Assembly (NCBI RefSeq): GCF_041248615.1
Contig: NZ_CP158426.1
Length of the DNA: 64,000 nt
Strand: one strand, 5' to 3'
Source of the DNA: Escherichia coli
GTDB lineage: Bacteria; Pseudomonadota; Gammaproteobacteria; Enterobacterales; Enterobacteriaceae
The first letter of the stretch is position 1; each line of letters begins with the position of its first letter. Below, piece after piece: positions 21,001 through 27,000 of this stretch. Made by a program: the position numbers.

Positions 21001-24000
21001 GATTCACTCTCATTGTGTCAATAACATGGACCGCCCCGCCTTCATGCGCGGTGCCGCCGGAAATAATTGTTTCGTTGATATACGGATAGATCGTGATTTC
21101 TTCGCCAAGATAGCTGGCGGCTCCCACCCAATGCGGGCCGCTGGTCTGCAGGTTGATGGACATGCCGATCATGTGACGGCTACATGGTTTGGCATCGCTT
21201 ATCAGTCGCTCAAGTTCCAGATAGGTATCTTCAGTGATGCCCTGGTCCTGCACGCCGATATCCAGACGAAACGTGCCCGGTGCCTCTCCGGTCTGCCACC
21301 ACTCAATAATGCGGATCAGAAAGCCGAACGGCTCCACCACCCGCCGCACGGCACTGGTGGTCCCTTTATGCTGATGAACATAAAAAGCATCCTTCACCAC
21401 CTGGCGCTTGACGCTTTCTGTCCAGCCCTCGTCCCAGCGATCCACAGAGAACGCCCAGGCGAGATAAGGCAGGAAACTGATCGGACAGGTTGCCGGGTTC
21501 CACAAGTCACGCAGCGGCACCTGCAGATCAGAAATCCCGCTGCAGGTTTGCGCCAGTCGGCGCTCCAGTAGTGTTGAACCCGGTGGCAGCAGACTATTCA
21601 TCCGTTCCTCCGTTGGTTACGCTCCACTGCGTACATGATGCCGCCTGTGTTTTGTTCAGGACCACATCCGCCAGCGGTGAAGCCAGCTCCACACGCTGCA
21701 CTCCCTCAACATGCAGGGCGGCAAAGATGGCGCTACGGCGAATATCCCGACCAAGCCGCGTCTGACTGGCGATGTACTTCTGCAGGCTGGCTTTTGCCGC
21801 TGCCATTACCGGCTCTGCTTCCGGTCCCGGATAGAGAAAAATGGTGGCTTCCACGCGATACGGGATGATTTCTGCGCTGCGAACCGTAAGACGGTCAGCC
21901 ACCGGGCGGACGTTCTCACTGTTCAGAGCTTTTTCCACCACGTCCAGCAGGTCTTTTTCTGCAGTTCCATCGCCTTCGCGGCTAAGGACAGTCAGCACCA
22001 CCTCTGCAGGTGCCGGGCTGGTTGCACTGGCATCCGCCACCCGACCGTCGGCGCTTCGGGCATGAAATTCATAAGCTGCAGTTGGCCCCGCAACTGAAAG
22101 CCCTTCAAAGGCTGCAGGCACACGCAGGCGTAACGCTTCATCGCTTTCCATCACAGCTGCAACGGGCGGCACAGCGTCATTATCAGCAGGCGTCACCGTC
22201 AGGCGTTTTACGTTGTAGTTGGCAGCGAGCTGGTCAAGATCGCTGCCCATCGCGTAAGCCGCCATCACAGCCTGCGCGGCTTCGTTAATGCGCTGGCGCA
22301 GAAGCAACTCACGGTAAGCGTTCTCCTGCAGCAATTTGGTGACGGGTTCAGATTCCAGTTCCAGCGTGCGGATCACTGCTTCCTGCTCATCTTTCGGATG
22401 AAGCGCCACAAATTCGGCCTTGCGTTCGGCAAGCAGCGTCTCAAAGTCCGGCACATCCACAATCTGCGGCGCAGGCAACTGCGAAAGGTCAATCACTGCC
22501 ATTCTCTGCTCCTGTTGATACGGAAAGGGAAACAGGCACACCGTTATTACGCCGCCCGCTCAGCGCCACCACCATTGAACCGTCAAAATTGCTGTTGATG
22601 GTGATGGAATCCAGCGTCATCCGTGGCTCCCAGCGACTCAGTGCCACATACACAGCCGACATGACCTGCAGGCGTAACGCCGGATTTTGTGGCTGATCTA
22701 TTAAAGCCGACAGCAGGGAACCATATTCCCGGCGGGCAATGCGGCTACCCTGCGGTGTCAGCAGAATGTCCCGCACCGACTGGCGCAGATGGTCAATATC
22801 AGTAATAGCTTTACCGCTGGTATTGTTCATCCCGATATAAAGCGTCATACCGGGCCTCCGGTTGTGTCGCCGCCTTTCAGGACGCCAGTATGCTGATGCG
22901 CATCAACCACGATCCCGTTAGAACTCATTGCACCGCCACCCTGGGTAACGCCACCATTGATCACCACTTCGCTGTTAATACGCGTGCGGTCAGCCTCCAG
23001 CACAAACTCACTGGTTTTCAGGGTGATGTTGTCGGCAGCCTCAATGACCATGGATTTGATGCCCCTGACATACCAGCGCCCGGTGGCGGGTTCGTATTCA
23101 AACCAGCCACCATCAGGATGTTCTGTCACGCAGGCTTCCGCCGACGTTGACGGCGGTGCGAACTGATTCGAATAGATGGCGGGCAACGCAAAGGCGGTTT
23201 CCAGATTGCCACCCAGGCTGAACAGCACAACCTGCTCGCCCACAGACGGTTTCCACCAGGTGCGCGATTTGCCCGCGCGCAGTGTCAGCCAGTTAATCCA
23301 GTTGGTTTCAAGGTCGCCCGTTTTCACCCGGCAAAGCCAGTTCTCCCGGTCCACCTCGGTGACTACACCAGTGCGGATCAGGTTGGTGATAAGGCGCATG
23401 ATTTCAGTCAGTTGTGCATTCATGAGAGCGATCCTTGCACAACCGGGTAGAGTGATGTAATACAGAGCGTATGTATGGAGAACCACACAAAAGAGAAACA
23501 ATTTCTAAGGTATTTAAGATGACACAAATCGCAATTTATGGATTTAATTTCACTAAAAAAATCACATTTGACGGTGGTGAGTTAACTCCTATTTTCAGTT
23601 CATGGAGTGAGTTAAAAAAAAATGGCTGGGCTAATGATAGGTACATCCTCACTGGTTTTTTCAAACCAAACTCGAATAACTACGCCACTCAACAGCAGCT
23701 TATTTTTGATTTACAAGCAGTTCTTAGTTTTATTGAACAAAAAAATGTAATCATTTCAGGAGAACTTGAAAATGATGAAACCCCTTTCAATTTCAAACCA
23801 TCTCTACCCAAAAAGCTTGACAAAAAAAGAGATAAGGGTGCGGGCATTATCATCATGGAAGATTATTTTGCACCAAACAGCCGAGAAAATTTTATTTGCT
23901 TAGCCATGGAAAAACTAAATAGTAAAGCCATGCTAAAACAAGATGCCTTTAGAACATCATTTTTTAAATCAATGCTAGCTTTCCGCGACTCAATAAATTA

Positions 24001-27000
24001 TATCGACGTCAGATATTATTTATTATTCTCGGCACTAGAAGCACTTTGCAGATTTATTAAAAATGACTACTCCCCTGCCAAAACACCACAAATAATCACT
24101 CAGGTTTTAAAAGAATATGGTTTTAATGTCGAAAAAACAGGACATACATTAGCTCAAAGAAACATTATGCATTACTGCAAACTCCGTCACTCGCTGTTCC
24201 ACAATGGTAAATACATTGCCTATCTTGATGAAAAAAACTCAGATGGCAAAATTGAAATTCAAGATTACTCATCAAATTTGAATTTACTGGTGCCACTTGT
24301 ACTAATGAAATTCATAGGATTTGATGACAATTATATAAACTGGGACTCATGGATTGATAGGAATCCATTTATCAGTAAAAAGTAAACTAAATTTTATAAA
24401 TGTGGTTTTATTTATCTCTGTAACCAATTTAGCAAAGCATCCTGAATGACAGTTTCCACATCATCATTTACGCCTAGGAGACGACGCTCTGCGTAACGGA
24501 CCTCCGGTCCTCTTCGACTGATGCGATCACGCAGGCCGTAGTGATGAACGCGGGCAATGCGCTGCACCTGACCTTCAAACTGCACGCTGGCAGAATCGGC
24601 GCTGGCGGCAGTTTTCAGGTATTTTGTGGTGCGCAGCTTTGTAAACATCTGACGTTTGATGCGCCCCTTTTTGCTGCGTGCTGTTACCCGTCGCGGCTCA
24701 TAACTGCTGCCATCTGGATTGCGCTGCATCCTGATGTTCTGCTGCTGTGTCCGGCGCAGTTCCTGCGCCAGCTGGCGCATCATGCGACTTCTCGTGGCTG
24801 GTTCCAGATTCGCCAGCAAGGCACTCAACCAGTCGTCCACCTTCTGCAGTTCAGCCACGTTTCACCGTCCACATTTCTTCAGGTTCATCGGGTTCTGCTA
24901 CAGCTTCAACGCTCGACACACTGCCGTCAGTGCTGACCAGCACACGCTCCGTCAGTTGCAGGTTCAGGCTGATATCACAGACATCGTTGCGCAGAATATC
25001 CACCTCAAAGGTGAATAGTTTTTCCCGTAACGCCGGGTTATTGATGGCATCGGGCTGGTTATCCCTCAGCCACAGCAAAACCGGGGCCATCAGCAGATTC
25101 TGGTCGCCGCTGAAATCCTCAATCACCGCGTTCAGGGTGTAACGGTACTCCCACGACATGGAGCTGGCCCCCGTAGCAACCAGCGAACCGTTATCCACAA
25201 ACAGATGCAGTTTGTCCGGGTTATTGCGGACATAAGGCACCGCTTTATTGAGGGCGTGGCGCAGGGATTGTGGTTTGTTCACTGTTTCGCTCCTGACACG
25301 CAATAATCATGTCCACTTTGTCTGCACAGACCGCCCAGGCGGCCTCCGTTTCATCCAGCAATGCGTTCAGATCACCGTTAGTGCGCGGCGCTGCCTGCTC
25401 CAGCCGACACGGCGTCACTCGCGGACAACCACTGACGGTAAGCTGCACCTCCGGTGAGTGCCGGACGTTCCCGCAGCCGGATAATGTCAGCAGGCAAAGG
25501 AGTATCAGCCCAGCGGCGTAAATCCTCGTTCTCACGTTTCAGTTCCTCGATCCGGCGTTGTCGTTGTCTCAGCAGTGCGCTGGTCTGTTCTGCTTCGGCG
25601 TAGAGCCGCGCCTGCTCCCGATTATTGGTTTCAGCCAGAATGGACAGACCGATCAGCTGGCTGTTTTTCTTCGTCAGTTCTTGCGCTTTACTTTTCAGCG
25701 CCGTGCGCTGCGTTTCGATGGTGTGGCTGGCGCTGTTAAGCCGCCACGACTGCCAGCCCAGCGTAACGAGTGCCAGCGCCACCACTACTGCCAGCGCACG
25801 CGTCATAGTCCAGCTCCTTTAAGGCACCAGGCCATCTCCCGCGCACGGCGGTTATCCAGCCCCTGATTAAACACACCTTTTACATACACCCAGCGCGGCA
25901 ACTGTCGGCACGCATCCGCCCAGCGCCGCTGATTGAGCAATTTCACCAGCGTGGAACTGCAGGCATTGCCCGTACCCACGTTGAAGGCAAACGACACCGC
26001 AGCGTCATACACCTTCTGCGGCGGCTGTTGCTTCACACACCTTTCCAGCGCCCGCTCCACACGCAGCACGTTGGAGATCAGCCCTTCTGCTGCCTGTCGC
26101 TCCGTAATGGTTTTGCCGGGAATGACGCCCGACGTATTACCAATGCCGTCAGTCCAGACACCCGCGCTGCACTGATACGGCTGCAGGCGACAGCCTTCGT
26201 AATCGGCAATCAGTTTCAGCCCTTCCACGGAGGTGTGAAGCTGCTGAAAACCCGGCAGCATGGCAGCAATAGCCAGCACGGCCCCGACAAGGCAGCGTTT
26301 AACGATTGATGGATTCATAGTCCTCCCGCGAGATCTGCCCGTCGCGCAGAAGCTGGTAGGCTTTGTGTTTGTAGTACCAGTTGATAGCCAGCATCAGCAC
26401 ACCAATCATCAGGCCGCCCAGCGTTGAGGCATCCTTGATGGACAAATCGCCCAGCCAGGCCAGCACGACGGCGATGCAATACGTGATAAAGGCGCTGATT
26501 CGCTCAAGCGTCATAATTCAGTCCCATAGCTGGACGGTCTGCACGGTGGTGGTAGTCGGAATGTCCGGCAGCTCCACCTGCAGCCCGTGAGGTAAAAAGG
26601 GGCCGTATTCGGCAAGCCCCGGATTTGCCTTCAGTACCTGCTCCGTGACACCCTGCGTGCGCCCGTAATGACGCCAGCAAAGCGCGTCCACCGTGTCATA
26701 CTGATGCGCACGCACTTTCATCAGATAAGCTCCACTGTGCAGTGCGGCGCATCCTGCACCCGGCTGATGGCCCAGCGGGCATCACGCCACAAATCACCGC
26801 TTGCTTCCGCCAGTTCCTCGCCTCGCTTCACACCGGACGCCGTGGCGTCATAGTCCTGATAACGCTCGTTGAGCATGGCGCGTGCCCAGCAGTAAACCGC
26901 GTTGAAATAGTGCTGAATGCGCTCACTTTTGCCGTCCAGCTGTTCTGCCGGAACCTCTGCCAGCGAGGCATAGCCCAGCATCTGCTGGCGTCTGCGAAAC

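Follow-up and report, generated by a model that had tools for sequence, protein, structure and literature searches.

The 64,000-nucleotide stretch of Escherichia coli DNA analyzed here (hereafter the window; NCBI RefSeq assembly GCF_041248615.1, contig NZ_CP158426.1) carries a P2-like prophage in which an AT-rich gene, here called the cargo gene (window 23519-24385, + strand, 288 amino acids plus stop), is located between the late genes S and V. Based upon a structure model and residue conservation, its product, a member of PHROG 4373 (listed as function unknown), appears to carry a HEPN-like fold in which a canonical R-[N/H]-x3-H motif is accompanied by a helix bearing a conserved Glu. Genome comparisons indicate that the prophage acquired this gene horizontally, as a one-gene cargo occupying its orf30 (S-V) variable slot. 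We hold it as somewhat better than an even call that the product is a stand-alone prophage HEPN RNase used in abortive infection or superinfection exclusion. The nuclease part of this reading is proposed because of the fold and the conserved catalytic-type residues, and the anti-phage part because these occur in a stand-alone mobile gene with defense-like slot-mates in a phage group with defense hotspots, one of which holds a PADLOC candidate system in this very prophage; the defense role would thus rest on guilt by location in combination with the predicted fold. That P2-like phages carry AT-rich cargo in the orf30 slot was already known, as were stand-alone HEPN effectors as a protein class. 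The newly proposed element is to assign the widespread 'hypothetical' family PHROG 4373, whose compact architecture is distinctive, to the HEPN fold. An earlier reading of the same sequence (the original prediction), which had suggested a lysogen-expressed defense or abortive-infection cargo gene at this position, is partly supported.

The cargo protein was modeled using an alignment-based AlphaFold (AF2) run, which gave a predicted local distance difference test score (pLDDT) of 89.8 and a predicted template modeling score (pTM) of 0.90. In this model, residues ~1-110 (window 23519-23848, +) form an alpha/beta domain that is weakly TBP-like and is proposed as a candidate sensor or regulatory domain. 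Residues ~121-265 (window 23879-24313, +) form a helical HEPN-like domain with a beta-hairpin insert at residues 233-246 and an all-alpha core helical bundle. The protein ends in a conserved Trp-rich tail, GFDDxxINWxxWxDRxPF (window 24314-24382, +), where F268, D270, I273, N274, W275, W278, R281, and F284 are at least 75-91% conserved; this tail is a candidate interface or pocket element.

The predicted catalytic residues belong to the Rx4H motif R223-H-S-L-F-H228 (window 24185-24202, +; family consensus R-N-A-L-F-H), which has the R-x4-6-H form with a polar residue after the Arg. The original prediction had pointed to an Rx4H-like CKLRHSLFHNG; this motif is present, and the Rx4H proved to be the most conserved polar feature of the family. 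Both R223 and H228 were invariant in 40 homologs, and across 56 more diverse members (25% mean identity) conservation was 98% for R223, 89% for N224, and 98% for H228, position 224 being His in the window protein and Asn in that 89% of members. The second most conserved polar site was E174...R178 (98% and 88% in the same 56 members), located in the helix 'LFSALEALCR' (window 24038-24052, +).

The best structural matches of the C-terminal domain in the PDB were nearly all HEPN domains, namely TTHA0636, HI0074, 4nqf, and YutE, three HepT toxins, MtlR, and the HEPN domain of AbiA, with Csm6, Cas13, and Csx1 ranked lower. Foldseek against AFDB50 first returned the protein's own family, several members of which are labeled 'Apea-like HEPN' by UniProt. 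Beyond the family, it returned proteins labeled 'YopA central domain', 'ApeA N-terminal domain', and 'Apea-like HEPN' (E 1e-5 to 1e-3, 290-380 columns), and the matches to the latter two groups covered both domains. The comparison of predicted folds by AlphaFold and Foldseek, which had been put forward along with the original prediction, therefore came out in favor of a HEPN-type C-terminal domain. One family fragment is labeled 'Cthe-2314-like HEPN' by UniProt. Two other assignments were considered and set aside. A GIY-YIG nuclease, suggested by the N-terminal 'GIYGY', was rejected, as the protein does not show the combination of GIY...YIG spacing, conserved Arg, Glu, and Asn, and GIY-YIG fold. 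A match to 2p1a in the N-terminal/linker region (E 0.027, PDB profile search) was weak and probably spurious and was not used.

The same structural matches bear on the possibility that this is a HEPN-like fold that lacks nuclease function and serves in ligand or nucleic acid binding or in regulation, as in MtlR or the original 'nucleotide-binding' HEPN proteins. We regard this as improbable. Non-catalytic chains (MtlR and sacsin) are indeed among the structural matches, and no RNase family profile matched significantly; however, conservation in the family is highest at the catalytic-type R-[N/H]-x3-H and the Glu. Inactive HEPN families, as Anantharaman reportedly described in 2013, typically lose the residues of the catalytic-type motif, which counts against a non-nuclease role.

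The location of the gene was compared with that of other P2-like phages and prophages. The original prediction held that S is followed directly by V in P2; this is incorrect, as in the P2 GenBank record the two genes are separated by Orf30 (261 aa, annotated as 'nonessential'), which is encoded on the opposite strand to S and V and adjoins the activator site of the V promoter (pV). P2 Orf30 and the cargo gene thus have the same position and relative orientation. The orf30 region is one of three foreign-gene sites of P2-like phages, the others being the TO (old/tin) and Z/fun regions (PMC3091744; PMC6823313). P2 Orf30 was rejected as a homolog of the cargo protein (BLASTP E 32, PHROG 2407 vs 4373) and is a positional analog only; Cartapus gp14 was likewise rejected upon direct comparison (PHROG 18838 vs 4373). 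Homologs that occupy the S-V site in matching orientation were found in Klebsiella phage ST437-OXA245phi4.1 (57% identity) and Salmonella phage RE-2010 (35% identity), both also matching PHROG 4373, and an 81%-identical copy likewise adjoins S and R.

Most close relatives have no gene in this slot. In the closest phage records by Megablast, mostly Klebsiella P2-like phages, both flanks were matched across a span of 1181 nt vs 2101 nt here, meaning that the site is empty. Among the 80 closest IMG/VR loci (found with gpS), the site was empty in 74, two carried the cargo family (one 99% identical and one frameshifted), and one carried an unrelated 231-aa membrane protein. The single-gene cargo postulated in the original prediction is borne out by these empty sites, which point to horizontal acquisition. 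Related S-V junctions were found in 1042 of 5426 complete E. coli genomes, and the cargo gene in 23 of the 5426. A slot census was performed by using 50 evenly spaced two-flank matches among the complete E. coli genomes: 30 slots were empty, and the others held a DUF6216 gene (8, including BL21), a 'hypothetical' gene (6), a TIR-domain gene (2), the cargo gene (2), an FRG-domain gene (1), or a DUF2971 gene (1).

P2 Orf30 and the other genes at S-V junctions resemble the cargo gene in being single, AT-rich, and non-essential, and most share its orientation. They differ in sequence: the TIR, FRG, DUF2971, and DUF6216 proteins and the 231-aa membrane protein are unrelated to the PHROG 4373 protein found here. 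Several have defense-like matches. The TIR-domain protein (E. coli locus L098, 792-1607, − strand, the same strand as the late genes) matches the PADLOC candidate PDC-S66/SpbK/ThsB-like, the FRG-domain protein (locus L099, 810-1745, +, opposite to the late genes) matches candidate PDC-S15 (E 8.5e-32), and the DUF2971 protein (locus L100, 750-1676, +, opposite to the late genes) matches candidate PDC-S31 (E 3e-24). The BL21 DUF6216 gene (locus L101, 828-1634) is also on the + strand, opposite to the late genes. The comparison of S-V junctions called for alongside the original prediction accordingly yielded both homologs at the same site and slot-mates that match PADLOC candidates, and the S-V slot appears, as a new observation, to be a single-gene hotspot with defense-like occupants. 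P2 Orf30 (locus L004, 1940-2725), the BL21 DUF6216 protein, and the protein at locus L089 3952-4647 resemble small membrane proteins. None of these three matched a PADLOC model, and similarity between P2 Orf30 and BL21 DUF6216 was borderline (23% identity over 172 aa, E 0.043).

Several results weigh against a nuclease acting in defense. The original prediction recognized no family, and this held insofar as no significant Pfam, NCBIfam, or PADLOC match was obtained for the cargo protein, although it does belong to PHROG 4373 and some of its homologs are labeled 'Apea-like HEPN' by UniProt. A profile search of PDB sequences found no HEPN chain, and the structural match scores of the model are modest. 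When the family was compared to the Ec2ApeA clade by hhalign, the result was not significant in local or global mode, either at full length (E 0.22, probability 0.3%) or for the HEPN domains only (E 0.066). HEPN domains are likewise known from toxins, from proteins that process RNA, and from binding proteins that are inactive, and the PADLOC 'PDC' families matched by the slot-mates are only candidates themselves. The gene is dispensable, given that most relatives are without it and some copies are disrupted: IS1 lies inside the cargo gene in two of the 23 complete E. coli genomes that carry it (NZ_CP048326.1 and NZ_CP048322.1), and a copy in an IMG/VR prophage locus (L082, 3987-4843) is frameshifted. 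These interrupted copies could reflect dispensability or a fitness cost. Lastly, a consensus scan found no convincing promoter 5' of the cargo gene, and no terminator or hairpin was found in a scan of the interval between the cargo gene and S (window 24386-24411). A possible extended −10 (TGaTGTAAT, window 23453-23461, +) was noted by eye at low confidence; the scan did not pick it up, and in the aligned loci it is conserved only in the closest relatives.

The baseplate assembly gene V (window 22845-23423, −), the first gene of the V late operon, and the tail-completion/virion-morphogenesis gene S (window 24412-24858, −) were identified from the open reading frame (ORF) list and the RefSeq annotation of an identical E. 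coli prophage. Both are opposite in strand to the cargo gene, with gaps of 95 bp between V and the cargo gene and 26 bp between the cargo gene and S. The first gap contains a TGT-N12-ACA dyad (TGTATGGAGAACCACACA, window 23472-23489), presumably the Ogr/activator site of the V late promoter, whose center is ~55 bp from the V start, a spacing also annotated in P2 for the activator site and the V start. The original prediction had placed the cargo gene just past this dyad, and the dyad is indeed there and is kept in five of five aligned cargo-bearing relatives. The second gap, between the convergent stops of the cargo gene and S, has a GC content of 0.15. An annotated terminator separates S from orf30 in P2, in contrast to the prophage here; late transcripts through S would therefore run antisense into the cargo gene.

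An HEPN RNase could also be used in the phage's own lytic cycle or in counter-defense (host RNA shut-off, or cleavage of host or competitor tRNA) and not as a lysogen-expressed defense, which we judge unlikely. Such a role would fit the overlap of the 5' region of the cargo gene with the Ogr-dependent V late-promoter region, the exchange of that promoter region along with the gene, and the retention of its position while diverging to 57% (Klebsiella) and 35% (Salmonella) in P2-like phages. It fits poorly with a gene on the strand opposite to both late operons, to which late transcription is antisense, that is missing from most related phages, that has homologs outside phages (in islands, in an integron-like array, or alone), and that has slot-mates resembling defense genes.

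The closest known comparison for the defense reading is ApeA, a single-protein HEPN abortive-infection system that cuts tRNA anticodon loops and becomes active when a ligand binds in a pocket that lies between the N-terminal domain and the HEPN domain; the characterized proteins are ~580 aa with three domains (bioRxiv 10.64898/2026.01.26.701840). ApeA (Ec1ApeA, WP_000706972.1; Ec2ApeA, WP_032180471.1) and the cargo protein are both encoded by single genes, both have a non-catalytic N-terminal domain, and both have a C-terminal HEPN R-N-x3-H with a conserved Glu helix upstream. They differ in that the 288-aa cargo protein has one small alpha/beta N-terminal domain whereas the ~580-aa ApeA has helical N-terminal and Mid domains (bioRxiv 10.64898/2026.01.26.701840). 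In order to compare the two by hhalign profile-profile alignment, full-length relatives of Ec2ApeA were gathered by protein search, of which 34 were aligned. Only 19 residues around the Rx4H motif align, onto R502-x4-H507 of ApeA; the cargo E174 helix resembles the 'WIALESL' helix of ApeA by eye and is unaligned by hhalign. HEPN_Apea (PF18739) did not match the window protein even at E ≤10 and matched 1-2 of 40-56 family members at sub-threshold values (E 2e-3 to 8e-3). The PADLOC ApeA models gave no match to the cargo protein, and one distant family member had a weak match to PADLOC 'Cas13-ApeA' (E 0.016). Because the hhalign comparison with canonical ApeA was not significant and no PADLOC ApeA model matched, the cargo protein was not filed as ApeA. 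It is a separate HEPN family that shares the general logic of ApeA, namely one protein with a non-catalytic N-terminal domain and a HEPN effector.

Other HEPN systems were also compared. With regard to HepT/MNT and DUF86-type HEPN proteins (PDB 7ae2, 8xdj, and 5yep), the cargo gene is without an adjacent MNT antitoxin and its product is without sequence-level similarity. The N-terminal domain, the beta-hairpin insert, and the Trp-rich tail of the cargo protein are all extra in comparison to minimal HEPN toxins. The RnlA/LsoA toxins, in which TBP-like domains are fused to HEPN, are among the closest known systems. A toxin-antitoxin module of the HepT/MNT or RnlA/RnlB type was rejected because the flanking gaps are too short to hold a partner gene and no such gene is conserved. 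A broader possibility, that the product is a selfish or addiction-type RNase with a HEPN domain, or that it is aimed at satellites and at prophages that compete with this one, with the benefit going to the module or the prophage, seems quite unlikely to us. Many small HEPN proteins are toxins (HepT being among the structural matches), the autonomous single gene has moved between mobile contexts, and the IS1 disruptions and frameshifted copy could mean cost or toxicity. Set against this, neither gap holds an antitoxin-sized gene, no partner is conserved elsewhere, there is no MNT or RnlB-like gene, and no Rfam RNA was matched (window 22500-25500).

Returning to a prophage HEPN RNase used in defense, we infer the following for lysogen expression, RNase activity, target, trigger, and phenotype. 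The cargo product would be a ~33-kDa two-domain protein, with a candidate sensor N-terminal domain and a HEPN C-terminal domain that has an intact R-x4-H plus the conserved Glu. A promoter of its own, divergent from the V late promoter, would drive weak production of the protein in the lysogen, where it would stay inactive until another phage infects. Once activated, it may cut tRNA or other RNA as an endoribonuclease that needs no metal, like ApeA and other HEPN abortive-infection proteins, so that translation would halt, the infection would abort, and the prophage-bearing population would be protected. A more specific and doubtful version, which we offer tentatively, makes the family a minimal half-size analog of ApeA. 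In this version, the small TBP-like domain and the Trp tail would detect a phage product or a ligand arising from infection and thereby activate a HEPN tRNase, and the divergent arrangement with the Ogr-dependent V promoter would let the prophage silence or override expression during its own lytic growth.

If the defense reading is true, a compact 288-aa HEPN family would join the prophage-borne anti-phage effectors, and the classical orf30 region would become a defense slot alongside the old/tin and Z/fun hotspots, one that alternates HEPN, TIR, FRG, DUF2971, and membrane-protein genes. The small cargo protein would also be a handy model for the gating of a HEPN nuclease by a sensor domain. 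Since AT-rich defense cargo in P2 hotspots and HEPN abortive-infection proteins are both well established, such an outcome would be of moderate surprise. Literature searches for WP_001579974.1 and for orf30 as a defense locus found no functional study.

The extent and coding status of the gene were determined from several lines of evidence. An open frame of 304 codons spans window 23471-24385 on the + strand. The original prediction gave a 289-304 aa ORF here; the ORF is real and lies opposite in strand to V and S, as claimed, but the 304-aa start is probably an ORF-calling artifact. Translation most likely begins at the ATG at 23519, for a product of 288 aa, as several observations agree. The RefSeq protein WP_001579974.1 ('hypothetical protein'), identical to the cargo product, starts at 23519; the PHROG 4373 profile (E 2.8e-142) covers residues 17-301 of the 304-aa form with profile positions 1-283 of 283; nearly all homologs begin at the equivalent Met ('MTxxxIYG'); and a TAAGG is located 8 nt 5' of this ATG. 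The in-frame 16-codon extension upstream (window 23471-23518, +), the source of the 304-aa form, is probably not translated, and its ATG at 23471 coincides with the TGT-N12-ACA dyad.

The AT-richness reported in the original prediction was confirmed, with a GC content of 0.332 for the cargo gene vs 0.570 for V and 0.553 for S; along the GC profile, values fall from 0.54-0.61 in the neighbors to 0.31-0.35 across the cargo ORF. The gene is real, conserved, and under purifying selection. In comparison to the 81%-identical copy, the nonsynonymous rate (dN) was 0.12 and the synonymous rate (dS) was saturated, and dN/dS was about 0.12 (0.1-0.15) in comparison to the Klebsiella copy. A spurious or decaying ORF in AT-rich junk DNA, to which an annotation of 'hypothetical' and the disrupted copies might point, is effectively refuted and was given a minimal probability. 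The chance of 288 stop-free codons at the composition of the cargo gene is ~2e-10, the family has 194 representatives of uniform length, dN is far below dS, and the predicted fold is confident.

The family is widespread. A word-indexed search returned 78 clusters, and an exhaustive profile search of 1.84 billion representatives returned the 194 members, all ~280 aa. These were mostly from Gammaproteobacteria and carry the name 'hypothetical', apart from occasional UniRef entries called 'Apea-like HEPN domain-containing protein', and the family was found on >1000 contigs of Salmonella enterica and E. coli. Distant homologs were solitary genes, found in genomic islands of Vibrio and Klebsiella beside an integrase or resolvase, in a toxin-antitoxin-rich region, or between housekeeping genes in Acinetobacter and Shewanella. 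No partner gene was conserved in six other genomic contexts of cargo homologs, and the function is therefore contained in one protein. In Halomonas-type contigs (L006/L007, 6001-6858), a 42%-identical homolog lies beside a tyrosine recombinase (Phage_int_SAM_4 + Phage_integrase), with small unrelated genes next (cupin, GNAT acetyltransferases, DUF6998, and Vgb lyase). From gene order, this homolog looks like the first cassette of an integron, and the locus is a candidate array.

In order to delimit the exchanged module, window 23424-24452 was compared to loci L018, L098-L101, L003, and L005. Homology to empty-site and other-cargo alleles ends sharply at 23423-23425 (the V start codon) for every allele, and the other edge is at 24453-24513, within the last 40-100 nt of S, again for every allele. 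The module (window 23424-24452) thus runs from the V-promoter region through the cargo gene into S, of which it takes in the final ~14-30 codons. It is not bounded by direct or inverted repeats. With break-points in conserved flanks and no flanking repeats, site-specific insertion was rejected, and the pattern suggests that the module is exchanged by homologous recombination in the conserved flanks. Because the module spans the V-promoter region and the 3' end of S, each cargo brings along a particular variant of both the S C-terminus and an essential late promoter. The dyad of the cargo-bearing module reads TGTATGGAGAACCACACA vs TGTATCAGTGCTGATACA in empty-site relatives.

The S-V slot was also set beside the gpA-gpQ (old/tin) and Z/fun hotspots of P2, which are established reservoirs of defense genes (PMC9122126; PMC9519451). 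All three have AT-rich cargo that is swapped between near-identical prophage backbones and has defense or candidate-defense content. Unlike the other two, the S-V slot holds one gene at once, is often empty, and is not treated as a defense hotspot in PMC9122126 or bioRxiv 10.64898/2026.02.27.708500; the terms 'orf30', 'gpS', and 'gpV' have no occurrences in either of these defense-hotspot papers. The gpQ-gpA hotspot of the present prophage (window 32833-36293, −) is located between the portal gene (~31749-32780) and the replication gene A (37150-39564) and holds two AT-rich genes (GC 0.35-0.38). The 384-aa protein encoded there had no PADLOC or NCBIfam match; for the 647-aa protein, PADLOC returned candidate system PDC-S49 (E 3e-156).

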